Shown here: positions 5,851-64,000 of the stretch, one piece after another | Layout of the letters: each line of letters opens with the position of its first letter | Position numbering within the stretch: the first letter of the stretch is position 1 | Assembly: GCA_963662335.2 (NCBI GenBank) | Contig: CAXXVD010000002.1 | Location: forward strand, 192,001 to 256,000 | Direction: 5' to 3' | Source: Chloroflexota bacterium | GTDB taxonomy: Bacteria; Chloroflexota; UBA11872; VXOZ01 | DNA: 64,000 bases | Notes under the pieces: model-generated | Told to the model about the DNA's origin: nothing | What the model saw: only the letters and a program-made list of their open reading frames with translations | Database searches by the model: none | Program-made: the position numbers and the translations under genes

Positions 5851-6003
5851 CGTGAAACTCCCTTGTTTCTCCACCGCAATGCTCGCGGTCACTGCTGCTG
5901 CTTGCAAGCGCCTACGTTCTGCCACTACGCCGCGCAAGCGCTACAACCCGCCGCGGCGACTTCGCCGTCCGCGTCGAAGCCGTCGTCTGTGACGAAGCCG
6001 GCC

Positions 6004-6822
6004 CTAGCGCCGGGCCGCCGCCACCGCCCGGCACGCCGCCATGAACTGCTCGTACCCGACCGTATCGCCCACGGCCTGTTGGAAGTACTTGAGCGCGGAG
6101 CGGGTCATCAGCCGCTCGGGGAACGTATCCGGGTACTCCACCGCCAGCGTCGCCTCGCGGATGAGGAAAACCTTGTAGCCATAGCCGAGCATAGGTTGGG
6201 TGGCGCCTGCCGAACCCAGGATGCACATGTTCGTGGCAAAGCCCGTATAGATGAGATTCTTGATGCCCTTGCCGCGGCAGATGCGGTCGAACTGGGCGCT
6301 GGTGAGTATCACCTGGTCGCCGGGTTCGGCGTCGCAGGACTGGATGATGCGCATCTGCTGCCAGCCGTCCCAATCGCGGTAGCCCGCGCCGTGGGAGCGG
6401 TCGGCGCGTTCCGCGTTCCAGCCCGGATTGGCCTCCGGCGGGCGCGCGGGGCCGGGCGGCGGGTTTGTGTCCTCATCTTCCAGCATGTGGTGGACGGAGT
6501 CGTACTTCATGGCGATGTTCCCCGGCTCCACGTGGAAGATCTGCATGCCGGCCGCCCGCGCCGCGTCAATCGCCGGGCGGATGTAGTTGTCGGCGATCCG
6601 CACGGATTCACCCTGGTTTTCCAGCGTGCCCATGTCCACGAAGTACCCCTCAGGGACTTCAGGCCCGTTCACGTCGCCCATGTTCCAAAGATGCAGCGCC
6701 ACGAAACCGGTCTCCGCCGGATTGAGGGTGAACTCTTCTTCTACCCACCCGGCGTCCTGCAAATTGGGCGTGGCCCAATGCGTGCCCAGTATCCGCAGCG
6801 CGACCGCTGTCTCGGTTGCCAT
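6004..6822 (-). CDS. Isochorismatase/cysteine hydrolase family protein
   Basis: GIKNLIYTGFATNMCI motif and YKVFLIREAT; ATG 6822 follows ggaggtaaggaa. Confidence 0.7.
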   Translation of the reverse strand: MATETAVALRILGTHWATPNLQDAGWVEEEFTLNPAETGFVALHLWNMGDVNGPEVPEGYFVDMGTLENQGESVRIADNYIRPAIDAARAAGMQIFHVEPGNIAMKYDSVHHMLEDEDTNPPPGPARPPEANPGWNAERADRSHGAGYRDWDGWQQMRIIQSCDAEPGDQVILTSAQFDRICRGKGIKNLIYTGFATNMCILGSAGATQPMLGYGYKVFLIREATLAVEYPDTFPERLMTRSALKYFQQAVGDTVGYEQFMAACRAVAAARR

Positions 6823-6907
6823 GATTTCCTTACCTCCGCAATTGCTGGGGAACGTCCTCAAAGGGTCATCAGAGTCGTCGGAAATGGAACTGCCCTTTGT
6901 GCGCGGC

Positions 6908-7351
6908 TCAGCGGAAGAGCACGATCAGGACGGCAAGGACACTGTTCGCCCCCACGACAAGCGCGCCAAGCCGCAGCGTCAAGCGCAGTTCCAAGTCTTT
7001 CATGTCGGCCTTGTGCGTTTGCGCCAGCGCTTCCAACCGCACTTCAACGTGCTGGAGGCGCAATTCCATCGCTCGCATTTCTGTTTGCGTTTTCTGGGCA
7101 AGGTCTTGGATTTCGGCTTGGGTCTTTTGCTCGAGGACCCGCAAATCGTCTTTGGTTGCAAACTCCCGCAAGTCGTCCTTGGTTGCAAGTTCCCGTAAGT
7201 CGTCCTTGGTGGCAAGTTCCCGCAAGTCGCCTTTGGTCGCAAGATCCTCGTGCGACTCGCCAACCGCGTCGACCACGGCCTCAGCCTTTGCTTCTTCGAA
7301 GCCGGCCGCCGTGAGGACCTTCACCGCCCTATGGGTATCGAATATCGCCAT
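6908..7351 (-). CDS. CCDC90/DUF1640-like coiled-coil membrane-anchored protein with ATKxDL repeats
   Basis: FDTHRAVKVLTAAGFEEAKAEA N-terminus, four tandem 9-aa ATK(G/D)DLR repeats, C-terminal TM segment. Confidence 0.8.
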   Translation of the reverse strand: MAIFDTHRAVKVLTAAGFEEAKAEAVVDAVGESHEDLATKGDLRELATKDDLRELATKDDLREFATKDDLRVLEQKTQAEIQDLAQKTQTEMRAMELRLQHVEVRLEALAQTHKADMKDLELRLTLRLGALVVGANSVLAVLIVLFR

Positions 7352-11071: not shown

Positions 11072-11148
11072 GAGACCTTTGCGTGCCTCCGTCATTCCGG
11101 CGAAAGCCGGAATCCAGAGGCGCATTTACAGCCAAGAATAAAGGTCTC
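11072..11148. mobile_element. Short IS5-derived MITE
   Basis: Ends gagaccttt...aaaggtctc match the IS5 IRs at 40381/41630; interior nearly identical to the reverse complement of 56536-56588. Confidence 0.7.
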
Positions 11149-25376: not shown

Positions 25377-25556
25377 CCTTCGACAGGCTCAAGGCGAACG
25401 GCAGGCGCCCTTCTTGCCAAGATTGAATTTGCCAAACCCCAACTGTCATTCTGCTCCTAACTGTCATTCTGAGGAGCGCAGCGACGAAGAATCTAGAGTC
25501 CGGGAGTCACGTAGATTCCTCGCTGCGCTCGGAATGACAACTGCGCTCGGAATGAC
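25377..25556. repeat. REP cluster (family E ccttcgacaggctcaaggcgaacgg plus family A)
   Basis: Family E recurs at ~34228, 54316, 55311, 60917 and 61089. Confidence 0.75.
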
Positions 25557-38581: not shown

Positions 38582-38942
38582 CGCGCGCGTTTCCTCAACT
38601 CGCTAGTAGACGACAAGGGGCGAACCCAGCGTTCGCCCCGCTTGATTCTGGTCTGAGTGAATCTTACTTTGCCGCGAGCGACGTGACGGTCATTGTGACT
38701 GTCATTCTGAGGAGCGCAGCGACGAAGAATCTAGGGCGCGAGCGGCACGAGATTCCTCGCTGCGCTCGGAATGACGGGAGACGCGGCTTCAGTCTCTCGT
38801 TGAGACTGATAATACGGCTGCAATTTGATTCCTGACTAGCGCATTGGGCAAGATGGAAGGAGCGTGCGGCGCACGCTATCCCGGCAATTGCATGGCCAAC
38901 AAAACCGCCTACAGGCAAAGACACAGTAGAGAAAGAAGCGCA

Positions 38943-50527: not shown

Positions 50528-50671
50528 ACAGTGTCAACAGTTCCTGTCATTCCGAGCGCAGCGAGGAATCTAGAGTTCAACCGGGAATCTGAGGCGTGGC
50601 GGGGGACTTGCATAATCGGTGTAGGGACACGACATGTCGTGCCCCTACGTCCATCGTGAAGGAGCTTACGC

Positions 50672-50974
50672 ATGGCGCTACCTATGGTCCATCCCGGCGA
50701 ACACCTGGCCGCGGAGTTGCAAGAAATCAGCATGAGCGCCGCCACGCTGGCGCGCCAGTTGGACGTGCCCACCAACCGCATCACCGCAATCCTAAACGGA
50801 CAGCGCGCCGTCACCGGGGATACCGCGCTCAGGTTGGCTCACTTCTTTGGTACCAGCGCGGATTTCTGGCTGAATTTGCAGAAGATCTACGAACTGCGGT
50901 TGGCTGAGAAGAGAGCCGGCAGCGCAATCAGAACGCTGCCGACACTTGAGAGCCTCCAGTCGGCCCGCGCGTAA
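50672..50974 (+). CDS. higA: HigA/VapI-family antitoxin (HTH)
   Basis: VHPGEHL, NRITAILNGQRAVTGDTALRLAHFFGTSADFWLNLQ. Confidence 0.88.
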   Translation: MALPMVHPGEHLAAELQEISMSAATLARQLDVPTNRITAILNGQRAVTGDTALRLAHFFGTSADFWLNLQKIYELRLAEKRAGSAIRTLPTLESLQSARA

Positions 50975-50984
50975 CGTGCGGCAG

Positions 50985-51303
50985 CGGGGGGCAAGCCCCC
51001 GCGCTACGGCTACGGCTTGGCCGGTTGCGGTCGCGTCCCCGCCCGGTAGGGGCGACCCTTGTGGTCGCCTGGAATGCGAGCCCCCGCGCTACGGCTTGGC
51101 CGGTTGCGGTCGCGCCCCCGGCCCGGTAGGGGCGACCCTTGTGGTCGCCTGGCGCGCAACCGCATCCAACCGTGGGGTCCACGGACAGCGCCGCAGGGCA
51201 ACCGCGACTGCCGTCCACCGCAGGGCAACCGCGACGGGGCAACCCATCGCAGGGCAACCGCGACTGCCGTCCGCCGCAGGGCAACCACAAGGGTTGCCCC
51301 TAC
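50985..51303. repeat. REP cluster (families C and G gtaggggcgacccttgtggtcgcc; four cgcagggcaacc units)
   Basis: Palindromic and direct repeats are visible; the last unit overlaps the TAG of the 51300 gene. Confidence 0.75.
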
Positions 51304-51548
51304 GTGTATACTGCCACCAGCACGGCCTCGTTGGGATTCTGCAGGTCGTTGAAGACCACCACGCAGCGCCGGCCGGCCGTGATGGCCATGGCGTCCAGGC
51401 CGCGATTGACGGCGATGCCGGCGAGAAACGTGGGAAACGAGCCGGCCAACTGCACGTCAGCCTGCCACTTCTTGGCGTCGAACTCTTTGACGACGCCGCT
51501 CAGCGCGGCGCCGGGCGTGATGCCTCGTGTTTCTGCGCGTTCTGCCAT
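51300..51548 (-). CDS. Small OB-fold-like protein (baseplate spike N-terminal/gpV-like, tentative)
   Basis: 82 aa, RBS ggagg; GVVKEFD...ADVQL...GRRCVVVF beta pattern; last gene of the cluster. Confidence 0.6.
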   Translation of the reverse strand: MAERAETRGITPGAALSGVVKEFDAKKWQADVQLAGSFPTFLAGIAVNRGLDAMAITAGRRCVVVFNDLQNPNEAVLVAVYT

Positions 51549-51649
51549 GGATGTTCCTCCGGTGTCGGTTACATGCTTGTGCCGCCGTCTTCCCCCTCTC
51601 CCTAACCCACCCCCCAGTGGCGAGGGAACCGGAACCGCCGGACACGTAT

Positions 51650-51810
51650 CGGCGGGGGGCAAGCTCCCGCGCTACGGTTGGTGAGCGTTCGGTTTGCGGG
51701 GGGCAAGCCCCCGCGCTACGGTTGGTGAGCGTTCGGTTTGCGGGGGGCAAGCCCCCGCGCTACGGTGAGTGGGCATTCGTTCTGCGGAGGACAAGCCCCC
51801 GCGCTACGCG
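51650..51810. repeat. Tandem ~44-bp family C units
   Basis: ggggggcaagcccccgcgctacggttggtgagcgttcggtttgc repeated two to three times plus a degenerate copy. Confidence 0.8.
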
Positions 51811-51828
51811 GATGCGCAGCGCTTGCTC

Positions 51829-53796
51829 CTATGTGTCTTCCAACTCCCCGCATTCCAGGGTCATCGTGTACTCCGCGTCGTCGGGCGTATAGCGGTGGTT
51901 GATGCGCGCAATGCGCAACGTGCCGTGGTCAAAGCCCGTGGTCTGAAAATCGACCACGTCGCCCACCTGGAGCGCCGGGTTATACGGCACGTCCACCGTA
52001 TACGCCTCGTTGGCGCGGCGGGCGGCGGCCAGCGCGGCCGCGGCGCGTTTCTGGCAGTCCGCGGCCTGTGTCAGTTGGGTATCGGTCACCAGCGCCGTGT
52101 TCGCGTTGCCCTGGGCGCGCAGCGCGGCCCAGTCCCACGCCTCGCCCAGCGCGCCGTCGCCCTGCACCAGCACGTGGTTGACGCGGGCGCTCTGCCGCCA
52201 GGCGCCGGCGAACTCCTGGCCGGTGTACGTCCACGCCGCCGCGTCATCCTTGCTGGGAAACCAACAGCGCACCGTGCCGTCCGGTTCCACGCGCCACCAC
52301 AGCGCGTCCAGCGCGGTCAGGCGGTCGATCATCGTTTGCCACGGTTGGCCGGCGTGCAGGGCAAAGGCCGGCAGCGCGCGGCCGAAGCGGCTATCGTTGT
52401 CGTCGCTCAGGCGCAGCGCGCCGGCGCGGTACCAGGCCTCCGCCAGCAGCGCGCGCAGGGTCTTGCCGCTAAACGACCACGTCTGCGCCACCCGGCGGCG
52501 GGCGTGCACGCTGGCGTCCGCCGCCTCCACGCGGACGGTCTTATCGGGCAGCAGCGTCACGCTTTGCACCGCCAGTTCCGCCATCTTCTTCTTCTCCGCG
52601 CCGGCGCTCGTCACGTAGCCGGCGCGCACGTCCAGCGTCACGCCGGCGCGCAGCGTCTTATCCAGCCGGGCGTCCAGCGCGCCGTCGGTGTTATCCAGCA
52701 GCAGGCTGGCGGCGCTCGTTGCGTTGGCCCGTTCCTCCCAGCGGAAATCCAGCGCGCGGGAGGTAACGTCCTGGAACTGGTCGACGTTCGTGGCCGCGTA
52801 GCCGGTGTAACGGTGGGCGATCTCCTGGTTCACCAGCCAATACTTGGTCGCGCTTTGCCGCAGCCACCAGAAGCCGGTGAACGACTCATCTTCCACCGGC
52901 GCGCCCTCGGAAAACAGTCCCCACGTGTGCGCCGTGCCGTAGCGCCAGCGGCCGAAGTTGAGACCCGAGACCGTGCCGTAGTCCCGCTCCAGGTAGCCGA
53001 TGCGGAAGGCCTGCTCCCAGTACTGGATTGTGGGATCCAGCAGGTCGCGCCGGGCCGCGCTGTCGTCCACGCGGGCGATGGTGGTCAGCGGTTCCCAGGT
53101 CGTGCCGTTGGTGCGGCAGCCCACGATTGCGGTGCCGCTGGCGCCCGGCGCGCCGCCCCAGAGCGATACGGCCAGGTGCCACTTCGTGCCGTCCCACGCC
53201 GCGCCGATGCCGCCGCAGGACGAGTATGCGCCGTGGCTCCACTCGTCCGCCTGCCAACTGCCGCCGGATTCATGCAGCCGGTAGATTGTCACACCGCCGC
53301 CGGTCTTGTCCACCGCCAGGAAGATGCTGCCGTTGCCGCCGTAGCAGAGCGCGCGCACGAACTTCTTGGCGTTCCAGAGAGTCTCCGCGCTGCTCCAGGT
53401 GGCGCCGCCGTCGCTGCTGGTGCGCCGGTAGACGGTGGTGAGCTTGACGTACACCACCGCCACGTGGCCGTTGGGCAACACGCCCGCGCCCACCCCGGCC
53501 GCGCCGGTGACGCCGGTCTGCAACGTCGTCCAGGTGGTCCATTGGCTCGCCTGGGTGGTGTCGGTGATGCGCTGAAAGGCGACGACGGCGGCAATCACGC
53601 CCCGCGCCGACGAGACGTCCACCCGCCAGAGCGCGCCGCCGTTATCCACGAAGCAGGCGTTGGCCGCGGCGGAGCGCGTAGCGGAGCGGTAGCGCGTGTA
53701 GCGGTGCGCCGCGTCGCGCAAGGTAAACTGCATCGCCGGCCGGCGGGCTGCCGCGTTCACCGCCGCCGCCAGGGTTGTGGTCAAGGTGCGGGCCAC
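51829..53796 (-). CDS. Putative tail-tip/baseplate hub protein with N-terminal BNR/Asp-box propeller
   Basis: GTG 53796 after ggaggt, 2 nt from the upstream stop; SSDGGATWS Asp-box; C-terminal NHVLVQG...PYNPALQVGDVV hub-like motif. Confidence 0.6.
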   Translation of the reverse strand: MARTLTTTLAAAVNAAARRPAMQFTLRDAAHRYTRYRSATRSAAANACFVDNGGALWRVDVSSARGVIAAVVAFQRITDTTQASQWTTWTTLQTGVTGAAGVGAGVLPNGHVAVVYVKLTTVYRRTSSDGGATWSSAETLWNAKKFVRALCYGGNGSIFLAVDKTGGGVTIYRLHESGGSWQADEWSHGAYSSCGGIGAAWDGTKWHLAVSLWGGAPGASGTAIVGCRTNGTTWEPLTTIARVDDSAARRDLLDPTIQYWEQAFRIGYLERDYGTVSGLNFGRWRYGTAHTWGLFSEGAPVEDESFTGFWWLRQSATKYWLVNQEIAHRYTGYAATNVDQFQDVTSRALDFRWEERANATSAASLLLDNTDGALDARLDKTLRAGVTLDVRAGYVTSAGAEKKKMAELAVQSVTLLPDKTVRVEAADASVHARRRVAQTWSFSGKTLRALLAEAWYRAGALRLSDDNDSRFGRALPAFALHAGQPWQTMIDRLTALDALWWRVEPDGTVRCWFPSKDDAAAWTYTGQEFAGAWRQSARVNHVLVQGDGALGEAWDWAALRAQGNANTALVTDTQLTQAADCQKRAAAALAAARRANEAYTVDVPYNPALQVGDVVDFQTTGFDHGTLRIARINHRYTPDDAEYTMTLECGELEDT

Positions 53797-53798
53797 GG

Positions 53799-54236
53799 CT
53801 ATACCTCCCGCAGCGTGACGCGGATTTCCCACTCCAGCGTCCACAACTGCTCTTTGCCATACGGGATGACGCGCTCCTCGCACGCGGCGAAACGCACGGT
53901 ATGGCTGGCGTTCAGCGGATCGACGAAGGTGTGGCTCTCGTTCGTGCGCTGAAAGAACGACCAGAGCCGGTCGCGCCACTGCCGGGCCGTGGTGGCGTTC
54001 GTCGTGCCGTCGAGATTGCGGATGCTCTCCCGGCACAGCGCGACGAACGAAAACTCGCGCTTGCCCAGGCCGCTCTCCACGTAGGAGACCGTGCCGCCCG
54101 CGGTCAGGCGCGACTGCGCGCGGCGCGGCCGGGTCATGGTATACGTGCCGGGCTTGATGAAGAACCCCAGCGCAGCGCCGTCGTTCACGTTGGTATTGGT
54201 CAGGGTTACGTTGCAGTCCACTCCAATGGTGGGCAT
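53799..54236 (-). CDS. Hypothetical virion/tail protein (paralog 2)
   Basis: 145 aa, MPTIGVDCNVTL...GFFIKPGTY; paralog of 54381-54788. Confidence 0.7.
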   Translation of the reverse strand: MPTIGVDCNVTLTNTNVNDGAALGFFIKPGTYTMTRPRRAQSRLTAGGTVSYVESGLGKREFSFVALCRESIRNLDGTTNATTARQWRDRLWSFFQRTNESHTFVDPLNASHTVRFAACEERVIPYGKEQLWTLEWEIRVTLREV

Positions 54237-54380
54237 CCTTTTCGTGCTCCCTCTCGTGTTGGTATTCGCTACCCGTGCCTGCGCAGGCGCTCTCCGGCAG
54301 CCTCTCCCGTTCCTGCTTCGACAAGCTCAGCACGAACGGTCTAGCCGGTAGGGGCACGACACGTCGTGCCCCTACCGGCC

Positions 54381-54788
54381 TCACGCCTCCACCAGCGTCA
54401 CCGCGATCTCCCACTCTGGTGTCTCCCACAGGCCCGAGGCCGCGGACACGCGCTCCTCCAGCGCCAGCGCGCGCACGCTGTGCACGCTTCCCAGCCGGTC
54501 GGTAAAACTCAACGCCGCGGTCTTGGCGTGGGACGCCCGCAGGTTGGCGCGGTAGGTAGCGGCAGACGTGAGATTCACCGTGCCGTCGTGGTTGAGGTGG
54601 TTGGTGTAGGCGAGCACGGTGAAGCGCCAGACCTGCTTGCCCGCGCCCAGGTCCACCGCGGCCGGCCCGGCGCTGGCGTCCGGGTCCGCGGCCATGATCT
54701 TGGGAATCTCCACGCGATACGAGCCGGGCTTCACGAAATAGCCGTTGCCATCCAGGATTACCGAACAATCCGTTCCAACGGTTGGCAT
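54381..54788 (-). CDS. Hypothetical virion/tail protein (paralog 1)
   Basis: 135 aa, MPTVGTDCSVIL...GYFVKPGSY...WEIAVTLVEA. Confidence 0.7.
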   Translation of the reverse strand: MPTVGTDCSVILDGNGYFVKPGSYRVEIPKIMAADPDASAGPAAVDLGAGKQVWRFTVLAYTNHLNHDGTVNLTSAATYRANLRASHAKTAALSFTDRLGSVHSVRALALEERVSAASGLWETPEWEIAVTLVEA

Positions 54789-54794
54789 GGTTTG

Positions 54795-55181
54795 CTACCT
54801 TATTGCTGCGAGTTTGGCCAGGATGCGGTTGGGCGCGCCGGTCAGCCCCAAGCGCAGCCACTCCCGCACCCGGTATTTGCGGGCGCTGGCGACCTTTGTG
54901 CTGTCCGGCGTATCGACAATGGCGACCACGTCGCTGAGGTCCACGTCCGGCGGGAACTCCGCCGTCACGTCCGGGCCTTTGCTGGCTGGCTCTTCGCCCC
55001 GGTTTGCCGCGCCGGACGCGGCGCCGCGCGCTTCCTGCCACGTGCACGCCGCCGCCGCGTAGACCGTCTCGCTGCCGCTCTTGCGGATCAGCGTCACGGC
55101 GCGCAGCCGCCCCTGCCGGATTCGCGCCCGGTTCGCCTGCGCGTGGGCAACCTGCCTGCTATCGAGCATTCTTTTCTCCAT
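54795..55181 (-). CDS. Hypothetical protein in head-closure position
   Basis: 128 aa (alternative start ~55169), 6 bp from the next gene; function inferred from gene order only. Confidence 0.55.
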   Translation of the reverse strand: MEKRMLDSRQVAHAQANRARIRQGRLRAVTLIRKSGSETVYAAAACTWQEARGAASGAANRGEEPASKGPDVTAEFPPDVDLSDVVAIVDTPDSTKVASARKYRVREWLRLGLTGAPNRILAKLAAIR

Positions 55182-55595
55182 TTCCGTTCAACGTCGGCCC
55201 GCCATTCCCGCGAAAGCGGGAATCCATCTTCTCATCGTCAATTCCCACTCCCCAGCGGGGGACAAGCCCCCGCGCTACACAGAGTTCACCCCCAAAACCC
55301 GGCAGTGCGACCGTTCGCGCTGAGCTTGTCGAAGCGTGAACGGTCTCACGGCGCGCGCCAACAAATGATGCACCATGTCATTCCGAACGGAGCGCAGCGG
55401 AGTGTCGAACCCTGTTCGCGGAATCTAGAGTCTTGGAGCAGCCGGGCGCGTTGCCGTATGGCACGAGATTCCTCGCTGCGCTCGGAATGACAGAAGCGCC
55501 GGTCTGCGTCTGAAACAGGGGCTGCAAGCGGCGCGACCAATGCGCTGGCGTATGCGAACAGACCCGCGCCAGCTAGCGTTCCCCATTGTTGCCGT

Positions 55596-56264
55596 TTAGC
55601 GTTCCGCATTCGTGCCGTCCACCGTCCACGCCACGCTCCCCCGCGTCTGCTGCGCCCGCTCCTGCCGCAGGCGCGCAAGCTCTTTCTCGAACGCCTCCCG
55701 CGCGTCCATGCCCTTGCGCCACCAGGCCGCGCTCACCATGCTCGTATCCACGCCCGCGCCTTGCTGGCCGTCCTGGTAGCGGAAGTTATCGGACTTCGGC
55801 GTGGCGTAGGCCAGGCAAGCGTGGGCGTACGCGCCGGTGGTGAGCAGGCCGGTGTGGGCGTCCGGCAGCGTCCACTGGCTCTCGCTGGCGACGTGTTTCG
55901 CGCCCCAGCGCACCCGCGCCGGTTCCGCCGCGCCGGGCGCTTCCGGCACGAGCAGGAAGACGTAGCCCGGCGTGCCGTCGCTGGCGGGCAGCGTCATGAA
56001 CGTGCAGAGCGCCGGCGGATAGCGGCCCGTGGGCCACTCCACCTCCTCCACGCTCCACACGCCCGCCAGGCTGCTCACGTCCAGCAGGCGCGAGCCGGCG
56101 CTGGTGGTCAGGGTGGCGTCGCGGGTCCAGGGCGCGGCGCGGGAGAGTTCGCTCAGGGCGCGGTCGATGGCGTGATCGAGGTCCGCGTCGCTGAAGCGCG
56201 CCTCGCTGCCGGCCGGATCGAACAATTCGCCGCGCAAGACGCCGCGAAATTCGCTCAATGTCAT
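55596..56264 (-). CDS. Putative head-tail adaptor/connector protein
   Basis: Follows the capsid gene; MTLSEFR...RFSDADLDHAIDRAL helical N-terminus typical of adaptors. Confidence 0.6.
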   Translation of the reverse strand: MTLSEFRGVLRGELFDPAGSEARFSDADLDHAIDRALSELSRAAPWTRDATLTTSAGSRLLDVSSLAGVWSVEEVEWPTGRYPPALCTFMTLPASDGTPGYVFLLVPEAPGAAEPARVRWGAKHVASESQWTLPDAHTGLLTTGAYAHACLAYATPKSDNFRYQDGQQGAGVDTSMVSAAWWRKGMDAREAFEKELARLRQERAQQTRGSVAWTVDGTNAER

Positions 56265-56452
56265 AGGTTTTCCTTACGTTGACAACTACACACGGATTGC
56301 TCGGCACAACGAAGCGCGCGCTCAGGCAGAGAGCCACCGCCCCCGCCCGGTAGGGGCACGACACGTCGTGCCCCTACCGGGCGTTCCCTCTCTCTTACGG
56401 AAGAAGGTGACGGCGGCAAATGTCCTCTCCGCCTCCGGTTCCCTCTCCCGCT

Positions 56453-56605
56453 GGAGACCTTTGCATAATTCTGTCACTCCGGCGAAAGCCGGAGTCCAGA
56501 TGCCCTTTTGCAACTGTAAATGGCTTGACAACCGCTATTCTTGGCTGTAAGAGCGCCTCTGGATTCCGGCTTTCGCCGGAATGACGGAATTACGCAAAAG
56601 TCTCT
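56453..56605. mobile_element. IS5-derived MITE carrying an inverted family B pair, inserted in a family H REP
   Basis: Ends ggagacctttgcataa / ttacgcaaaagtctct; gct duplicated at 56450-56452 and 56606-56608. Confidence 0.8.
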
Positions 56606-56634
56606 GCTGGGAGAGAGTTAGGGTGAGGGCCGCC

Positions 56635-58629
56635 CTACGCCACGTCCGCCCAATACGCGCCCCGGAAGTCCAGCCAGCCGCCGCCGAACTCCCAGCGCAC
56701 CTTGTAGCTGATGGCGTCGTTGGTGAAGACCGAGCCGGCCGTCGGGTTGTCCTGCACCAGCAGTTCCGGCGTCTCCTGGCCGTTGATGAAGCCCACCTCC
56801 AGGCACTCGCTCTGGGCCGGATCCGCCATCAGGTAGTAGTCCTTGACGTCGGTGAACTGCGGCGCCACGAGCGGCTCCACCATGCCCTGGAGCGGATTGG
56901 CATCGTTGTTCTGGCTGCCGGGCAGCAGCGTGCTGTTGAGGATCGTCACCGCGGTCCAGTAGAGGTCCGGCGGCAGCAGCAGGTAGCGCGGCTTGAGGCC
57001 CAGGCGCTTGCCGGCGCTGTTGGTCTGCTTCATCATCGCCGTGATCGCGGCCTGGAGCGCCGCCGCCGAGAGCGCGGTCGTGCCGCGATTCTTGTGCGCG
57101 GTCTGGCTGCCGTCGTCGAAGACCTTCGTGTTGTCCGCCAAGCGCGGATTGCTCGTGAAGAGGCCGTAGACGAACTCGTTGATCGTCGTGGCCGCGGCAA
57201 TCGCCAGCTTGGTGGGAATGCGCCGCACCGCCTCCAGGTCGTCGTTCAGGATCGCCTCGCGGGTGACCACCACCAGGTTGCCGCGCTTGGCCGGCGTGTA
57301 CGTCTCGCGGGTGTCGTCCCAGGCCAGGTTCGTGTAGGCGGCGTTCTCGTTCACCGTGCCGAGCGCGGCGAAGTCGTGCAGCAGCACCCGGTACTGGGGC
57401 TTGTAGTCGCGGATGGCGCGGATCGCGCAGAACTTCTTCCAGTCCTGGGGCTGCGCGGCGTAGTCCTGCACCAGACGCTTGGTAATGGCGTTGGCCAGGG
57501 CGTGGTTGAGCACGCTGGTGGTGACCTCGTTGGCCTCGCGCACCAGCGAAAGCTCAGGATTCAGAGCGCCGCGCACCTCGGCGTCGCCCGTAATCTGCAC
57601 GTAGGCTTCGCGGATGCTCGACCAGGCGGGCGCCGGCGCGTCGCCGCCCATGTCCCGCACGCCCAGCAGGCGCGCCAGGCCGGCCGCGGCGGCGGCCAGG
57701 CCCCGGTCGGCGCCCGCCGTGCCCAGGCTCACGCGCGCCTTCTCCGCGCCCGCGCCGCGCACGCCGTTGCCGCCGCCGGCGAGCGCGCGCACGGTCTCCA
57801 CCTCGTCCTGAATGGCCTGTTCCAAGACCTCGGTCGTAAAGGTCTGCCCCGCGAAGCGGCGGCGCAACTTGCGCGTGATGGCGCGCGGCAAGGCGGCGGT
57901 TTCCAGCCGCTCGTTGAGCGCCGTCATGCACGCCAGTTTGGCCTCGGCCTCCGCCAGGCGCGTCTCGGTGTTGGCTGCGGTCGTGTCTCCCATCTGTACC
58001 TCCTCGGTATGGGATGAATCATGCGACTCCGCCCCGTCCTGGGGGCGGTCGTTCACGGTGTTGGCCTGTTCGTCTTGCTGCAAGGTATCCTCCTTGTGTG
58101 TGTCGGTACCCTCCGACGCCGGCAAGATCTGTTCGAACGCGCCGCCGGCCGCGGCCCGGGTGACCACGTCGCACGAGCGCAGCGCCGGAATGCTCTCCAC
58201 CACCTGGACGGTCGCGCCGTTCTGGCGCTGGGCGCGCACCGACGCCAGCGAGTCGATGGAGAGCCCCAGCACGTCGGGACGCCCCAAGTCGACGGCCTCT
58301 TGCACCAGGCTCCAGAGCCAGTCGGCGCTGGCGAAGATATGGAGCACGGCGCGCACACGGTCGCCTTCCAGCCGGGGTTCGCGGTAGAAGCCCACCACGT
58401 CGCGCACGCTGCGGGGCTTCTCGCTGCCCTCGGCCGCGGGCGCGGGATGGTCGGCAAAGGCGCGCAACCCGTCAAGCTGCGCCGCCACGTCCCGCAGCGC
58501 CTGGGGCGTGAAATAGCGGCCGTTGCGCGATAGCCCCTGCCGCAACACGGTCACGGCCACCTCCCGCCGGGGCGCGTCCAGTTGCGCCTCTTGCAACGGC
58601 ACGAGCAACGCGAGTTGTTCCGGTTTCAA
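56635..58629 (-). CDS. Prohead protease-scaffold-major capsid fusion (Mu gpT-like C-terminal domain)
   Basis: N-terminal GLSRNGRYF, ADHP, GLSID, SCDVVTRAAAGG protease-like motifs; C-terminal LGLKPRYLLLPPDL, YYLMADP, YKVRWEFGGGWLDFRG; TTG start after AAAGGAG. Confidence 0.85.
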   Translation of the reverse strand: MKPEQLALLVPLQEAQLDAPRREVAVTVLRQGLSRNGRYFTPQALRDVAAQLDGLRAFADHPAPAAEGSEKPRSVRDVVGFYREPRLEGDRVRAVLHIFASADWLWSLVQEAVDLGRPDVLGLSIDSLASVRAQRQNGATVQVVESIPALRSCDVVTRAAAGGAFEQILPASEGTDTHKEDTLQQDEQANTVNDRPQDGAESHDSSHTEEVQMGDTTAANTETRLAEAEAKLACMTALNERLETAALPRAITRKLRRRFAGQTFTTEVLEQAIQDEVETVRALAGGGNGVRGAGAEKARVSLGTAGADRGLAAAAAGLARLLGVRDMGGDAPAPAWSSIREAYVQITGDAEVRGALNPELSLVREANEVTTSVLNHALANAITKRLVQDYAAQPQDWKKFCAIRAIRDYKPQYRVLLHDFAALGTVNENAAYTNLAWDDTRETYTPAKRGNLVVVTREAILNDDLEAVRRIPTKLAIAAATTINEFVYGLFTSNPRLADNTKVFDDGSQTAHKNRGTTALSAAALQAAITAMMKQTNSAGKRLGLKPRYLLLPPDLYWTAVTILNSTLLPGSQNNDANPLQGMVEPLVAPQFTDVKDYYLMADPAQSECLEVGFINGQETPELLVQDNPTAGSVFTNDAISYKVRWEFGGGWLDFRGAYWADVA

Positions 58630-58680
58630 GGCGTCATTCTCCTTTCGCTGCTGTGAGTCGTACGTATTCATGCGGCCACT

Positions 58681-58689
58681 TGGTACAAT
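58681..58689 (+). promoter_or_regulatory. Extended -10 TGgTACAAT giving a leaderless transcript
   Basis: ATG 58697 lies 7 nt after the -10 box and has no SD. Confidence 0.55.
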
Positions 58690-58696
58690 AGCGACC

Positions 58697-59275
58697 ATGA
58701 ACGATAACCAATCTCCCGCCGCCGTTGCGCTCACCGTGGTCGTCGCGCCCTCCCAGGCCGGCGGCTACTGGGCGGAACTGCCGTCCCTGCCGGGCTGCGC
58801 GGCCCAGGGCGACACCGTTGACGCCGTGCTCACCGACCTCACCATGGCGGCGGAGATGTTCCTCTCGCAGGAAGCGCCGCCGGCCGATACGCTCGCGCTG
58901 CGCACGGTTGCCGCCGCAGTGGGCGACGCCGCGTACCGCCTGCCGGCCGTCACCTGGCGCGTGGGGCGGCGCGTCCACGCCGTCGCCATTCCCGTCCACG
59001 ACCGCGTGGCGCGCGGCGAAACCGAGGAAGAGGCCCTGGCGCAACTGCAACGGCTGCTGCCCGCCTGGATAAGCGCCGACCTGAGCGAGGGCGAGACCGT
59101 GCCGGTGGTCGGGGTGGCCGATACCGCCGCCATCCACCCCCGCGTCGGCCAGGCCACCGGCGCGCCCTTGTCCCAAAACGAGGCCCTCAAGCCCGAAGTC
59201 GTCCTGGTGCTGCTCCGCGCCGCCGGCATGACCAAAGAGCAACTGAGCGAGATGCTGGACTACGATCCGGATTAG
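58697..59275 (+). CDS. HicB-like protein (two HicB-like domains plus a degenerate HicA-like tail)
   Basis: GGYWAELPSLPGCAAQGDTVDAVL; second unit ARGETEEEALAQL; tail HP...LKPEVVLVLLRAAGMTKEQL. Confidence 0.7.
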   Translation: MNDNQSPAAVALTVVVAPSQAGGYWAELPSLPGCAAQGDTVDAVLTDLTMAAEMFLSQEAPPADTLALRTVAAAVGDAAYRLPAVTWRVGRRVHAVAIPVHDRVARGETEEEALAQLQRLLPAWISADLSEGETVPVVGVADTAAIHPRVGQATGAPLSQNEALKPEVVLVLLRAAGMTKEQLSEMLDYDPD

Positions 59276-59361
59276 CCTCATCTTCCTCCCAAATGCCCCC
59301 TTTCCCTCGAGGAAGAGGGCCGGGGTGAGGGTGTCTCCGGCCAGCCGTTCACACACCATCC

Positions 59362-60648
59362 TCACTCCTCCTCAGCCAGAAACCGCCGGAAGAGCCGCGC
59401 CGCGTCCTCCGTTTCCAGCCAGCCCTCGCCCTGCGCCAGTTGCAGCGAGCGCGCGAACGACTCGGCGTGCGGCCCGGCCACCTGCGCCACGTCCGGCTGG
59501 AGTTCCTGGAAGACCACGCGAAACGCCGTATCGACGTCCGCCGCCAGCGCGCCGGCCTCCTGTTTGGCCTGGATTGCCCGCGCCACGAGACGGCGCAGGT
59601 AGCGGCCAAAGAGTTCCTGGCGGCGTTGGAAGCGCCGCAGCGTGGGCAGGCCCATCTCGGCCGCGGTGGCCCGGTTCACGTGCCCGCCTTCCGCGAGATA
59701 GTGCTCCGGCAGGCCCGCGCCGGCCGCGATCATCAGCTTGAGCGCGCGGCCGTCGGCGGCCACGTCGTCGGCGCCAATCGCGGGCTGCACCGGCTGCCAG
59801 GTTTCCGCTTCGTTGTGGAAGACCACCGTGCCGGGGGCGGGCGGGTGGGCGTAGGCGGCCATCTTGGCCAGCAGGTCGTTGCGCGTCGCGCCGCGCACGG
59901 TCACGTCGTAGATGAAACTGCCTTTGAGCCGGTTGATGCGGGCGCGGTCGACGAGCCAGTCCCGGTACCGCTTGAGCCAGGGCAGCAGGGGCGCCAGGTC
60001 GCTGCGGCCCCGCAGGGCGTTGGAGACGCGGTTGATGGTGAAGTGCTCCATCTCCCCGGCGGCCACCCAGTAGCCGGGGTCCGCGCCCACGCCGCGCACC
60101 CGGTAGCGCAGCGCGCGCTCGACGTCTTCCGGCGCGGTCTCGATCTGCTCGATGAGGAGCGGATCAAGCTGCCGCAGGCGGATTTCGCCGGCAAGCGGGT
60201 CGGTGAAAACCCGCACGAACTGCTCGCCGTAGAGGGCAAGCTCGGTGTAGAGGCTGTAGACGCGGGTGTCCATGCTGTTGTCGAGATGCCGCCAGAAGGC
60301 GTCCACCGCTTCCTGCGCCGCCGGGCTGGCGCACGCGATGCGCACGCCGCCGCCCAGCACGAAATTGGCCTGGACGTCGATGACGGCGTAGGCCAACGGA
60401 TTGGTGACGTAGGCCTCGTAGACCTCGCGCAGCAACCGCTGATGGTCCCAAAGGGGATCGTCCCGCGTCTCCGCCGCGCCGGCGGCCTGGCGGTAGCCGA
60501 TGTCCTCAGCCGCTACCGCCTCCTGCACCCGCGCCTGGATCACGTCGCCAAAGAGCCGCTCGCCCACGCGCCGCCACCACTGTCTCGTCTGTATTGCCAT
60601 CGCGCTCGCTTTCTGCTCTTCTGCACTTTTCTGTTCTTTGTCCGGCAT
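59362..60648 (-). CDS. Phage portal protein
   Basis: Directly after the terminase; YVTNPLAYAVI, ELALYGEQF, GRSDLAP, AGAGLPEHYL...NRATA motifs; ATG 60648 after aggag. Confidence 0.82.
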   Translation of the reverse strand: MPDKEQKSAEEQKASAMAIQTRQWWRRVGERLFGDVIQARVQEAVAAEDIGYRQAAGAAETRDDPLWDHQRLLREVYEAYVTNPLAYAVIDVQANFVLGGGVRIACASPAAQEAVDAFWRHLDNSMDTRVYSLYTELALYGEQFVRVFTDPLAGEIRLRQLDPLLIEQIETAPEDVERALRYRVRGVGADPGYWVAAGEMEHFTINRVSNALRGRSDLAPLLPWLKRYRDWLVDRARINRLKGSFIYDVTVRGATRNDLLAKMAAYAHPPAPGTVVFHNEAETWQPVQPAIGADDVAADGRALKLMIAAGAGLPEHYLAEGGHVNRATAAEMGLPTLRRFQRRQELFGRYLRRLVARAIQAKQEAGALAADVDTAFRVVFQELQPDVAQVAGPHAESFARSLQLAQGEGWLETEDAARLFRRFLAEEE

Positions 60649-60723
60649 TCCGCTAACTCCTACATTCCCTCTATGTGCTGCCTTTCCTCGACGACCTGAA
60701 TTCCCTCGATGTGCTCCATCTTC

Positions 60724-61224
60724 GTTCGCCCTGAGCGTGTCAAAGGCGTCCGCCGCCGTCATTCCCGCGCCCGCACTCCGTCATTCCCGCGCCCGCACTA
60801 CGTCATTCCCGCGAAAGCGGGAATCCATCTTCTCCGCCGGCGCCGCCGCCGCGCCTGCGGGGGGACAAGCCCCCGCGCTACGTGTCAGCCGCCTTGCCGG
60901 TTTGTCCTTCCTTGCCGTTCGCCCTGAGCGTGTCGAAGGGCGTCCGCCGCCGTCATTCCCGCGCCCGCACCCCGTCATTCCCGCGAAAGCGGGAATCCAT
61001 CTTCTCCGCCGGCGCCGCCGCCGCGCCTGCGGGGGGACAAGCCCCCGCGCTACGTGTCAGCCGCCTTGCCGGTTTGTCCTTCCTTGCCGTTCGCCCTGAG
61101 CGTGTCGAAGGGCGTCCGCCGCCGTCATTCCCGCGCCCGCACTACGTCATTCCCGCGAAAGCGGGAATCCATCTTCTCCGCCGCCGCCGCCGCCGCGCCT
61201 GCGAGGGGCAAGCCCCCGCGCTAC
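60724..61224. repeat. Three tandem composite REP units (E+B+C, ~170-190 bp each)
   Basis: Units start at 60724, 60917 and 61089. Confidence 0.88.
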
Positions 61225-61248
61225 GGCTCAGCCGCCTCTTCGCCGGTA

Positions 61249-62799
61249 TCAATAGCCTTCCGTCCGCGCTTCTTGCGGCGGCAGCGCCACCGACGCGGCC
61301 GGCGGCGCGCCGCCTTCCACCGCGCGCGTCAGCAGGGCCAGGGCCGACACGTAATCGTCGTGGCCTTGGCCGCTGGGCACGTGGAAGCCGATGCGCTGGC
61401 CGGCATGCAGCGTCAAGCGGCACCTGCGCGCTTGGCGCCGGCACTCCCGGTGTTCCGGCGAGCCGTCGTCGGCCCACAGTTGCAGGCGGCCGCCGCCCAC
61501 CAGACTGCGCAGGTCGTAGCCCAGGGCGCTCTTGGACTGCGCCGTGAACGTAAACGGCTCCACCCGCTCAGCCCCCAGGCGCGCCCGCAGGAAGCGGGCC
61601 AGCGCGTCGCCGATGCCGGTGGCGTCGATGATTGCCCGCTGCGCGCGCCATTCCTCGCCCAGCAGGCGCGCCAGGCGGGCGTACTGCTCGGTGGTAGGCA
61701 GGCCGGTCCACTGGTAGGCGTTCACCACCTGCACCGCGGGCAGGGCGAACCCCAATACCGGGTCGTGCCGCCAGACCCGCTCGCCAATCAAGACCACCGT
61801 GCTGTCGCGCCGCGTATTGCCGCTCGTTTCGCCAAGAGCGGTTTCCTCACCGGCCACGTCCACCGCCGCCACGTAGTGCGCGTCGGCCTGCGGTTCCCGT
61901 TGCCGTTCGTGCGCGCCTTGCAGCGCCGCTTGCAGTTCCGGCGTGAAGAAGCCGGTGGCGTCGTCCACCTCTTCCAGGCAGTACTGGGTGCGGATGACCA
62001 GGTCGTTCGCGCCGCGCTGGCGGATCTGCGCCCGCACCGCCGCGCCGTAACGCGGGTTCTCCCGCGCCCCCACCTGCCAGGGAAAGGAAAAATGCCGCCG
62101 CTCGCCGGTCTCCTTTTCTCCTGCGAGGTTTATTGCTTTGTATTGAGCGAGGAGCGTATCGTTCGTCCACGGCGTGCCGTAGAGCACGATCGTCGCGTTC
62201 TGCGCCGCAGCCATGGGCAGGAACTCCTTGGCGAACTTCTCCGCGTCCACGTCCTGGGCTTCGTCCACTTCCAGCAGCAGGTCGGCGGTGGCGCCGACCA
62301 CGTTGGCCTGCTCGTGGGCCGAGAGAAACAGCGCCCGCGCCTTGCCAACGGCAATCATGTTGCCGGGGACGCGCCGCCAGTGGGGCGCCAGCCAGGGACG
62401 TTCCAGCGCCTCTTCCAGACGCAGGCGCGAGATGAGGGTCTGCGGCGTGAGCGTGGGCGCGCACTTGACGACCGTGCCGCCGCGCCGTTGATGGCGGTAG
62501 AGCAGGTAGGCTTCCAGATGGGCCGAAAGCTCGTTCTTGCCCATCTGCCGGGCCATCTCCACGGTGAAGATCTTGCCCTCCCGCCGCCGCACGCTGGCCA
62601 GCACCGCCCGCGCTACCGTTAATTGGTAAGAACGCAGCGGCCGTCCCACGAGCGCGCGCGAAAAGTGGGCGATGTCGGTGAGGGTGTGGCGGAAGAAGGC
62701 GCGCGCCAGCGCGTTGCCGTCGTTGCCGCCCGCCGTTGACGGCGGCGGCGCGGCGTCCTTCCTAAACCGGTTTTCTCTGTCGGCTAGATTAGTCTGCAC
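61249..62799 (-). CDS. Terminase large subunit
   Basis: LRSYQ, Walker A ARQMGKNE, Walker B LEVDEAQD, GTP coupling motif, nuclease VDVAGE / IDATGIG / HDDYVSA; GTG 62799 after aggaag. Confidence 0.9.
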   Translation of the reverse strand: MQTNLADRENRFRKDAAPPPSTAGGNDGNALARAFFRHTLTDIAHFSRALVGRPLRSYQLTVARAVLASVRRREGKIFTVEMARQMGKNELSAHLEAYLLYRHQRRGGTVVKCAPTLTPQTLISRLRLEEALERPWLAPHWRRVPGNMIAVGKARALFLSAHEQANVVGATADLLLEVDEAQDVDAEKFAKEFLPMAAAQNATIVLYGTPWTNDTLLAQYKAINLAGEKETGERRHFSFPWQVGARENPRYGAAVRAQIRQRGANDLVIRTQYCLEEVDDATGFFTPELQAALQGAHERQREPQADAHYVAAVDVAGEETALGETSGNTRRDSTVVLIGERVWRHDPVLGFALPAVQVVNAYQWTGLPTTEQYARLARLLGEEWRAQRAIIDATGIGDALARFLRARLGAERVEPFTFTAQSKSALGYDLRSLVGGGRLQLWADDGSPEHRECRRQARRCRLTLHAGQRIGFHVPSGQGHDDYVSALALLTRAVEGGAPPAASVALPPQEARTEGY

Positions 62800-62901
62800 A
62801 AGTCTCTTCCTGAGCGGTTTTCCCGCGTGGACTTTCTCGCCCTCTCCGGCCGGCGGGTGACAAGCCCCCGCGCCACGTTCCGCTAATCCCGCTCTACGCT
62901 C

Positions 62902-63403
62902 CGCCAGTCCGGTAGCGCAGGTTTGCAACCTGCGTCCCCGGTCAGCGGGTGACAAGCCCCCGCGCAACCGCATTGGCTCTTTCTGTCATTCCGAGCGCAG
63001 CGAGGAATCTAGAGTCCATGCGGAGCGCGGTCCAATTGATCGAGAATCCTAGATTCCTCACTGCGCTGCGCTCCGTTCGGAATGACATGCGTGTGCAGAC
63101 CATCGGCCCGGCTACCAAGGCCGGGCGCTCCATTTGGAATGACATGCACAAGAGGCAAACAGGGCGCTGTGCTTCCATGTTCCTTCCATAGAGTCGGACA
63201 AGCCCCCGCGCTAGGTTTCGCCAGTCCGGTAGCGCAGGTTTGCAACCTGCGTCCCCGGTCGGCGGGTGACAAGCCCCCGCGCAACCGCATTGGCTCTTTC
63301 TGTCATTCCGAGCGCAGCGAGGAATCTAGAGTCCATGCGGCGCGCGGTCCAATTGATCGAGAATCCTAGATTCCTCACTGCGCTGCACTCCGTTCGGAAT
63401 GAC
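62902..63403. repeat. Direct duplication of a 185-bp composite REP unit (F+C+A)
   Basis: 62902-63086 and 63219-63403 are nearly identical. Confidence 0.88.
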
Positions 63404-63435
63404 AAAGCGCGCGCAATGCGGAACGGCCATTCCGG

Positions 63436-63687
63436 TTACTGCCCTGGCGCGAAGCGCAGAATGCCGTTCAGCAGCGCCGCGGCAAACGGCGAAGCGAAGA
63501 TGCCGATCAGAATCACGTTGATCTTCGCTTCCAGCCGGGCGTAGTCCTCCCGCGTGTTCTCCGCCAATTCGCGCGTCACTTGACCGTACGCGCAGCCGTG
63601 TTGCGCCAGGCGGTCGGCCAACTCGTGGCAGCGCGCGGCGTGTTGCGGCGGCGTATGGGTGTTCGGTTCATTCAGTGTGGTCGGCAT
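63436..63687 (-). CDS. Small coiled-coil plus single-TM protein (XhlA/holin-like architecture)
   Basis: 83 aa; REDYARLEAKINVILIGIFASPFAAALL; overlaps the upstream gene end. Confidence 0.6.
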   Translation of the reverse strand: MPTTLNEPNTHTPPQHAARCHELADRLAQHGCAYGQVTRELAENTREDYARLEAKINVILIGIFASPFAAALLNGILRFAPGQ

Positions 63688-64000
63688 GGTGTGCCTGCTC
63701 TTCCTGTTGTTCCAGCGCTTCGATTTCGGCAACGACCTGGCGCATCGCCTCGGTCAGGTTGTCCTCGGCCCGGGGCGAGAGTTGGGCGCGCGCTTTCAGG
63801 GCGTCCAGCAGAATGCCCGTCAGTTCCTTCACCGCCTTGATTTTGTCCGCCGGCGCGCGCTCGTCGTCTTCGGCAGCGAGCAGTTGGGCCGCGATGCGGC
63901 GCAGGAGCATGCGCAGCAGGCCGATCTCGTCCTGGAGCAGCGGATTGTCGGCCGTGCGCGCCAGCGCCGCCAACTCCTGCTCGGTGAAGAGGTCGGCGTA
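63668..64000 (-). CDS. Probable terminase small subunit-like helical protein (5' truncated)
   Basis: Frame is open to the window edge (YADLFTEQEL...LQDEIGLLRMLLRRI); lies upstream of TerL. Confidence 0.55.
   Translation of the reverse strand, partial: YADLFTEQELAALARTADNPLLQDEIGLLRMLLRRIAAQLLAAEDDERAPADKIKAVKELTGILLDALKARAQLSPRAEDNLTEAMRQVVAEIEALEQQEEQAHHADHTE

Follow-up and report, generated by a model that had tools for sequence, protein, structure and literature searches.

A domesticated phage-particle locus beside lexA in a Chloroflexota genome: a candidate gene transfer agent

The window analysed here comprises 64,000 nt of a Chloroflexota genome (G000:C2:192001-256000; further genomes are given G numbers and Chloroflexota families f numbers, with f1 being the family of the window's genus). 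According to the list of open reading frames (ORFs) and the sequence extended beyond the window, its right end harbours 11 virion and packaging genes of phage type, arranged head to tail from 64,033 down to 51,300 (12.7 kb; Table 1). Since all of them are located on the minus strand, transcription proceeds from the window's right end leftwards. A first-pass annotation, made from the nucleotide sequence without database searches, had described such a co-oriented set and considered it a gene transfer agent (GTA) or domesticated phage-particle locus. The set is present as described, but a conserved HicB-like gene on the plus strand had been overlooked. Domestication and long vertical descent of the locus, favoured in the first pass over a recent prophage, are well supported by its fixed site, its co-divergence with the host and the dispersal of its genes in family f5, while GTA activity is a plausible candidate function.

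Table 1. Positions of the locus genes, bordering genes and a repeat array (positions above 64,000 refer to the extended window)
Feature	Position	Strand	Remarks
g1	63668-64033	-	121 aa; 33 nt at the start lie beyond the window
g2	63436-63732	-	up to 98 aa; overlaps the end of g1
TerL (large terminase)	61249-62832	-	
Tandem repeats	60778-61293		three tandem 172-nt repeats (D2, D6) between portal and TerL
Portal	59362-60648	-	
HicB-like gene	58697-59275	+	between portal and capsid; two UPF0150 stretches
Capsid	56635-58671	-	prohead protease-scaffold-major capsid protein fusion
Adaptor	55596-56264	-	head-to-tail adaptor
g8	54795-55181	-	128 aa; neck protein
g9	54381-54788	-	135 aa; g10 paralogue
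g10	53799-54236	-	145 aa; predicted tail-tube / tube-initiator fold
Hub	51829-53796	-	655 aa; GTG start with GGGAGG ribosome-binding site
g12	51300-51548	-	82 aa; putative OB-fold spike base
HigA-like gene	50672-50974	+	left border; helix-turn-helix (HTH_3, 1.4e-8)
Aminotransferase-like ORF	left flank		395 aa; named from the sequence without a family search
lexA	64185-64883		divergent from g1; Peptidase_S24 (5e-25), LexA_DNA_bind (7e-13)
Sigma-70 region-4 protein gene	65306-66049		after lexA

The first-pass calls of TerL, portal and capsid are borne out by matches in Pfam and PHROGs. For TerL these matches are weak (Terminase_6C of Pfam, 0.0056; phrog_5909, 5e-6), and its start is uncertain because the first part of the long ORF consists of REP sequence. 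The protein carries Walker A (ARQMGKN), Walker B (LLLEVDEAQDV) and nuclease (RRDS, IDATGxG, GHDD) motifs, named as in T4-type terminases. These ATPase and nuclease motifs are invariant across f1, f2, the solo genes of f5 and two phage-like relatives. Upstream of TerL, g1 possesses a conserved start with ribosome-binding site (RBS), and profile homologues occupy the same position in f2 (2e-6), f30 (2e-9) and f35 (2e-8). Its earlier designation as probable small terminase (TerS) agrees with this position, but not with the family searches, as Pfam, PHROGs and NCBIfam provided no match; based on its location upstream of TerL in four families, g1 is retained as a candidate small terminase. A homologue of g2 is inserted between g1 and TerL in f2 (5e-23) and f30, as in f1; g2 matches no Pfam, PHROG or NCBIfam family and appears to be a small protein with a C-terminal hydrophobic (transmembrane) helix.

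The portal (phrog_10963, 8e-36; Phage_portal_2, 3.6e-4) shares 89-92% identity within the genus. The capsid fusion matches Phage_capsid_4 (PF25209) at residues 380-674 above the gathering cut-off (2e-42; 146.6 bits vs. cut-off 27) and phrog_4523 (5e-68), whereas its score against the NCBIfam model NF045541 (scaf_prot_MCP2; 3e-74, 250.6 bits) stays below the curated cut-off of 525. The fusion has the architecture of NF045541 but falls outside this family when the curated threshold is applied. Its true start is probably situated 15-20 codons downstream of 58,671, since the conserved LALLVPL is preceded by a stop in several relatives. Seven relatives show TGA codons in the capsid gene, but these are located before the real start and were accordingly rejected as lesions. 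The adaptor call of the first pass is corroborated by a match to nearly the whole SU10_adaptor model (PF24175; 1.2e-5, residues 1-203), scoring just under the cut-off (26.2 bits vs. 27). The HicB-like gene (UPF0150, 5e-9; HicB_lk_antitox, 4e-5) is kept in 11/11 genus genomes and was not found in f2 or f5; no HicA partner was seen.

The three small genes listed in the first pass after the adaptor are g8 and the paralogues g9 and g10. The g8 protein is conserved in f1, f2, f3 and f5, and in the phage-like record G098 a homologue (7e-11) is placed between the genes for portal and capsid; Pfam, PHROG, NCBIfam and PDB searches gave no match. The g9 and g10 proteins share 35-40% identity and belong to a rare family (90 clusters at E<=1e-3 among 1.84 billion proteins) without a family match in Pfam, PHROGs, NCBIfam or PDB sequence searches; PDB profile searches with alignments A1-A6 likewise returned chance-level matches only. 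An AlphaFold (AF2) model of g10, built on a 39-row alignment, reached a pLDDT of 92.2 and a pTM of 0.82. Foldseek related this model to 22 PDB chains at E<=1e-3 (TM up to 0.68/0.71), including diffocin baseplate chains (8v3w_T/G; 2e-5, TM 0.68/0.71), proteins of phi812, Mu, pyocin R2 and AFP, the monocin and lambda tubes, and the neck chain 6toa_G of RcGTA (2.3e-3). The predicted fold thus places g10 in the tail-tube superfamily comprising tube, tube initiator and terminator proteins, and g9, as its paralogue, would be a member of the same fold family.

For the hub, the AF2 model is of moderate quality (pLDDT 72.6), with residues 215-306 being unreliable. Nevertheless, the first-pass call is confirmed by the predicted fold, which matches hubs of extracellular contractile injection systems (eCIS; 1e-18) and Mu gp44 (1wru; 1.6e-14, TMt 0.70), as well as MuSo2, the pyocin R2 hub, VgrG and T4 gp27. 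The alignments to hubs of 311-335 aa cover about 330-350 columns at TMt 0.66-0.71, and the matched columns are taken to represent the C-terminal half, modelled as a baseplate hub of the gp27/gp44 type. The N-terminal third is all-beta with a weak BNR_2 signal (0.02), and the protein also matches the 'tail protein' family phrog_1887 (1.5e-4). A word-indexed search of 5.8 billion proteins retrieved 22 hub homologues, all with at least 71% identity; distant homologues were found solely by examining loci. The small g12 protein is kept in 11/11 genus genomes, and homologous N-terminal domains occur in hub-adjoining proteins of 194-257 aa in phage-like records and other families. Searches of Pfam, NCBIfam and PDB sequences provided no match for g12, and its putative role as OB-type spike base is suggested by sequence pattern and position after the hub. 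Gene order and predicted folds are consistent with a particle in which portal, adaptor, g8, g9, g10, hub and g12 would be stacked in this order. The models point to a stubby tail in which tube-fold proteins are combined with a gp27-like hub and neither tape measure nor sheath is present, in agreement with the short tail suspected earlier.

Functions for autonomy of a phage were not recognised. Pfam scans of the 11 minus-strand ORFs and the HicB-like gene, and PHROGs scans of the minus-strand ORFs apart from g12, yielded no integrase, replication, repressor, tape-measure, sheath or endolysin families, as already noted from the sequence in the first pass. Only two tyrosine recombinase matches (PF00589) exist genome-wide, both on other contigs, and paralogues of the locus genes were not found elsewhere in the genome. 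A search for att-like direct repeats of at least 12 nt between the flanks was negative, and no tRNA was found around the locus. Extension beyond 64 kb, the check proposed in the first pass, revealed lexA, the sigma-70 region-4 gene, a KDPG aldolase gene and further host genes, and neither an integrase nor a replication module. On the left, the HigA-like gene is probably a host or toxin-antitoxin gene outside the particle set; four paralogues with 30-64% identity are encoded elsewhere in the genome (C2:130904-131158, C4:132827-133069 and two sites in C3).

GC content and GC at third codon positions (GC3) of the locus are host-like, in line with the codon style described before. The claim that the gaps hold the same REP families as other parts of the window likewise stands: families D5/D7/D9/D10 occur in locus gaps at 50541, 55460, 62980 and 63297 and outside the locus at 16-94, 1980-2058, 25460-25511 (upstream of rpoB) and 38698-38795, and family D8 at 11072, 20856 and 56454. 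In addition to the array listed in Table 1, tandem repeats occupy 62888-63404 and 51652-51808. Promoter and terminator scans performed no better than on shuffled sequence, and Rfam gave 0 matches.

The capsid gene is present as a single copy in 16/16 genus genomes (79-86% identity), 11 of which were fetched for analysis of synteny and selection. In all 11, the 12 genes (i.e., the virion and packaging genes plus the HicB-like gene) are arranged in the same order, and lexA forms the right flank in 10 of them, the fetched range ending before this position in the remaining genome. Median pairwise dN/dS values (Nei-Gojobori) are 0.074 for the portal, 0.33 for g2 and 0.14-0.21 for the other locus genes (g1 0.156, TerL 0.139, capsid 0.137, adaptor 0.138, g9 0.153, hub 0.158, g12 0.148, HicB-like gene 0.171), as compared to 0.11-0.20 for flanking host genes; in the closest trio (dS 0.10-0.15) the locus values are 0.12-0.14. 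Thus, purifying selection acts on the locus like on host genes. Synteny and dN/dS, both suggested as checks in the first pass, therefore agree with a resident locus. The dS of the locus is similar to that of rpoB in three deeper pairs (0.335/0.321, 0.561/0.625 and 0.586/0.540), and a tree of the concatenated locus shares four shallow clades with the rpoB tree of the same ten genomes.

Beyond the genus, the capsid gene was detected in f1 (16/16), f2 (1/1), f5 (9/9), f3 (7/14; fragmented metagenome-assembled genomes), f4 (1/19, weak) and not in f6 (0/38). The f2 locus consists of g1, g2, TerL, portal, capsid, adaptor, g8, an extra ORF and one g9/10-like gene, followed by host genes, and f3 has clusters of portal, capsid, adaptor, g8 and g9/10. 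In one f3 genome (G093) the order is rearranged to capsid, adaptor and portal on one strand, unlike in the other f3 clusters. In f5 the genes are dispersed in 4/4 genomes into three pieces (TerL; portal plus capsid; adaptor-g8-g9/10) located 30 kb to >1 Mb apart: G020 carries TerL at 1.25 Mb, adaptor-g8-g9/10 at 2.889 Mb and portal-capsid at 2.92 Mb, and other spacings are found in G026, G038 and G088. The pieces are intact, each lying between host genes that are conserved in 3/3, 3/3 and 4/4 genomes.

In capsid trees, the host copies of f1, f2, f3 and f5 form one clade (support 99-100) with the topology f1,(f2,(f3,f5)). The RpoB tree with outgroups, an earlier version of which was unrooted, has the topology (f3,f5)+(f1,(f4,f6)), and the capsid tree is congruent with it at the family level. 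Of the congruence with RpoB asked for in the first pass, the family level and the agreement of locus and rpoB dS hold, whereas the deep nodes within the genus do not agree (see below). The simplest reading is that the class ancestor possessed the locus, which was lost once on the (f4,f6) stem and in a scattered manner within f3.

Relatives of phage type were recovered from IMG/VR. Scanning with the capsid alone gave one match (31%), and the g9/g10 profile A1 drew eight contigs. One of them, G098 (IMGVR_UViG_3300031520_000006; 46,344 nt, linear, CheckV completeness 96%), encodes homologues of portal (48% identity), g8, capsid (3e-161), hub (6e-56), g9/10 and TerL (5e-106), together with a longer adaptor and a 194-aa OB-containing protein, in a gene order unlike that of the window. 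It additionally encodes a holin (phrog_608, 3e-17), an integrase (2e-17), a DnaD-like protein, an RNase T exonuclease and a HerA-like ATPase; no tape-measure, tube-polymer or sheath gene was recognised in it, and no homologue of g1, g2 or the HicB-like gene was found. Judged by this gene content, the window locus matches the virion module of a temperate short-tailed phage of this kind, without the genes for autonomy. The capsid tree places the IMG/VR records inside the group of genomic f25 copies; either these f25 copies are prophages belonging to a phage lineage that is still alive, or the 'viral' records represent fragments of chromosomes. This nesting may mean that the capture is older than the class or occurred repeatedly, a single marker being undecisive. 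The nearest named phage is Microcystis phage Mae-JY22 (capsid fusion 31.5% identity over 94%). It was rejected as guide to the tail, since it has a tape measure and shares with the locus only the capsid and, weakly, the adaptor.

The computational checks proposed in the first pass all turned out in favour of its interpretation. Taken together, the results establish the phage ancestry of the locus, its immobility, its age and the selection acting on it, along with the predicted folds of g10 and hub. They are explained with moderate probability by a captured and vertically kept virion module of a temperate short-tailed phage, the particles of which serve as GTA or in a related task. The virion-and-packaging module of a temperate short-tailed Chloroflexota phage would have been captured by the chromosome before the families of the class diverged, and then passed on vertically under purifying selection. 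The integrase, the replication genes and any recognisable lysis genes would have been lost, and the TerL motor (with g1 as candidate TerS), the portal, the self-processing capsid protein and the neck (adaptor and g8) kept, in the window's genus together with the tube-fold proteins g9 and g10, the gp27-like hub with its added beta-rich domain, and g12. The cell would still assemble DNA-filled particles under its own control, possibly via the adjacent lexA and sigma-70 region-4 genes as candidate regulators, and would employ them as GTA or for a related export or delivery task. DNA-filled particles are favoured by the conserved packaging chemistry of TerL. The overall pattern suggests that production of the particle now serves the cells themselves, perhaps for shipping DNA, and a GTA would be the best fit for the window's genus, which keeps the tail tip.

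Several observations weigh against this explanation. Locus and rpoB trees differ at short deep branches within the genus, and the rpoB data reject one deep clade of the locus tree (approximately unbiased test, p 0.0006), with the reverse test being borderline (p 0.053). The left flank (HigA-like and/or aminotransferase-like ORF) was seen in 6/11 genomes, the HigA-like gene itself in 5/11; in the other five, neither gene lies within the 0.5-3.5 kb fetched. Seven frameshifts or stops affect locus genes in 4/11 relatives, i.e., a capsid stop, a hub frameshift and a TerL frameshift in G007, a hub stop and an adaptor frameshift in G006, a capsid frameshift in G013 and a g9 frameshift in G005. Assembly error was rejected as their cause: 62 host orthologues from the flanks were compared in these four genomes (29,772 aligned aa, 40 kb per genome) and are free of internal lesions, all apparent stops lying upstream of true starts. 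Hence, the lesions are locus-specific and probably real, implying that some species are losing the system. Hub and g12 were not detected in f2, f3 and f5, where profiles of both found nothing in f2 or f5; the class-wide part would therefore be head and neck, which fits DNA delivery poorly. Moreover, neither the locus nor the rest of the genome revealed a recognisable lysis gene, the G098 holin has no homologue in the genome, and the particle locus is known here from genes alone.

The head-and-neck-only state of the sister families, together with the lesions in some species, leaves room for a repurposed or waning role. A domesticated but repurposed locus, the capsids of which interfere with or borrow tails from related infecting phages (making it a chromosomal counterpart of capsid-forming satellites), or which serves in DNA export or in an interaction with a host animal, is fairly unlikely. 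It would account for the absence of hub and g12 from the class-wide core, and related phage-like records with integrase and holin do exist. A precedent is offered by head-only GTA remnants of obligate symbionts (Rickettsiales/Holosporaceae), described by George et al. 2022 (PMC9254644) as having kept head and portal under purifying selection, with tail parts missing and repurposing suggested. However, the intact ATPase and nuclease motifs of TerL point to DNA packaging as the selected activity, and the window's genus keeps a complete tail tip under selection. Moreover, PADLOC defence models matched 0/10 locus proteins, for which reason a defence system was rejected.

Slow decay of a cryptic prophage remnant without host function would agree with the locus-specific lesions in 4/11 relatives, with the REP elements in every gap and with the failure to find phage-type lysis or regulatory genes, but is difficult to reconcile with dN/dS values (0.07-0.33) that are the same as in host genes. 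Likewise, the locus has been kept since before the family split, its genes are intact after dispersal in f5, the catalytic motifs of TerL are invariant, and 8/12 genus genomes examined are fully intact, rendering such a remnant quite improbable. A recent prophage is excluded for practical purposes, and an active one, or separate integrations of related phages at a hot spot, is highly improbable. Even though phage-like IMG/VR relatives nest within f25 and one of these records is flagged as provirus, neither integrase, att repeat, tRNA nor replication genes were found, the host copies of f1, f2, f3 and f5 form a single clade that follows the host tree, locus dS equals rpoB dS, and the gene order is unlike that of the phage-like record.

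Viewed against the criteria for GTAs and viriforms as given in PMC9662315, the locus has tailed-phage-derived structural genes and vertical transmission, and no integration or replication module. The same criteria demand that the particles enclose mostly host DNA and at best a part of the genes encoding them, and that a small subpopulation produces them under host regulation, with transfer to recipients; in this respect, the locus measures 12.7 kb in the window and is spread over >1 Mb in f5, and lexA and the sigma-70 region-4 gene are leads to regulation. In the account of that source, known GTAs stem from few lineages, chiefly Alphaproteobacteria and spirochaetes, and the RcGTA-type comprises the alphaproteobacterial type I GTAs, classed as viriforms. 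Each known GTA goes back to a separate phage capture. The window locus resembles RcGTA in its caudoviricete-derived cluster for head, packaging and tail without integrase or replication genes, in its vertical inheritance under purifying selection, in the tube-fold neck chain 6toa_G among the g10 matches, and in that its genes may sit at several chromosomal sites, RcGTA having several loci. It differs in belonging to another phylum with no sequence relationship shown, in its protease-scaffold-major capsid protein fusion of the Phage_capsid_4 type, in the absence of a tape measure and long tube, and in being known from genes alone. The head-only remnants mentioned above correspond to the state of f2, f3 and f5, but they are described as degenerate RcGTA homologues of Alphaproteobacteria, whereas here the origin is independent and one genus has a tail tip.

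Other particle types share parts of the set. G098 has homologues of portal, capsid, g8, OB protein, hub, adaptor, g9/10 and TerL, likewise with no tape measure or sheath seen, but differs in its integrase, holin, DnaD-like protein and exonuclease, in gene order, in its longer adaptor and OB proteins, in a GC content of 55% (65-70% for the window locus) and in having no g1, g2 or HicB homologue; its activity as phage is putative. Capsid-forming phage-inducible chromosomal islands (cf-PICIs) combine terminase, portal, capsid and connector genes in a compact set that does not include a full tail; they are mobile elements and retain their integrase and replication genes. The window locus has a similarly compact packaging and head set, but neither integrase nor replication genes, occupies a fixed site and co-diverges with the host. 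With contractile injection systems, tailocins and long-tailed phages (Mu gp44, T4 gp27, diffocin, pyocin) it shares the predicted folds of g10 and of the C-terminal half of the hub; it differs from these in having no recognised sheath, wedge, tape measure or spike tip and in that the shared parts are attached to a DNA-packaging head.

The locus would represent an independent phage capture in Chloroflexota, marked by fixed position, host-like selection, co-divergence, gene dispersal and loss of mobility functions, and an unusual particle plan, with a DNA-packaging head joined directly to a tail tip of tube initiator and gp27-type hub, without tape measure or sheath. Chloroflexota are known largely from uncultured genomes, and in the full-text literature, supplements lying outside the scope of the search, no paper title was found that joins 'gene transfer agent' with Chloroflexi or Chloroflexota. 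Should the particles contain host DNA, a route of gene exchange would exist in a group without a known one; if they do not, the long-kept head-and-neck core needs another explanation.

The capsid profile matches 77 of 401 sampled Chloroflexota genomes (a sample that takes in the unpublished genomes G135 and G218), in nearly all of them with a single match, with positive families including f25 (24/29), f18 (3/3), f19 (5/10) and f17, f21 and f23 (2/2 each). Outside the window's class, f30 and f60 have the gene order of f1, and the groupings (f47,f25), (f60,f30) and the window's class recur in both capsid and RpoB trees. One may tentatively speculate that the element is a very ancient, GTA-like viriform of Chloroflexota at the scale of the phylum, independent of the known ones, with a stubby tail of tube and hub and with its own sigma-like regulator; against this stand the phage-like IMG/VR records inside f25 and the use of one host marker.

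A sigma-70 region-4 protein is encoded after lexA in the 10 genus genomes (of the 11 fetched) that reach the right flank. In G141 of f30, a homologue (28% over 180 aa, 6e-12) adjoins g1 in divergent orientation (L116:4789-5370). This protein may act as a regulator belonging to the element, with a tie to lexA in the window's genus. RcGTA has links to LexA and a sigma-like activator. Outside the g1 RBS and the lexA promoter region, the spacer between g1 and lexA is poorly alignable, and because no conserved LexA-box palindrome was seen in it, SOS control is only a lead.

Further observations concern RpoB and the remainder of the window. RpoB matches are split or interrupted in G013, G016, G017, G026, G040 and G029; five of these genomes have open rpoB frames of 1233-1544 aa, and in G017 the match is distributed over two shorter frames. 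Such a pattern points to insertions in rpoB of some relatives, perhaps inteins or inserts specific to a lineage. The segment 20001-24000 has a GC content of 0.57, compared to about 0.65 elsewhere in the window, and may be foreign DNA or an rRNA-like region. At 5131-5455, 16 overlapping copies of a GTC/GTG-rich 61-nt unit are spaced 9-24 nt apart where long ORFs of opposite strands overlap (4555-7314, plus; 4612-5937, minus); they are read as a probable repetitive low-complexity protein segment.

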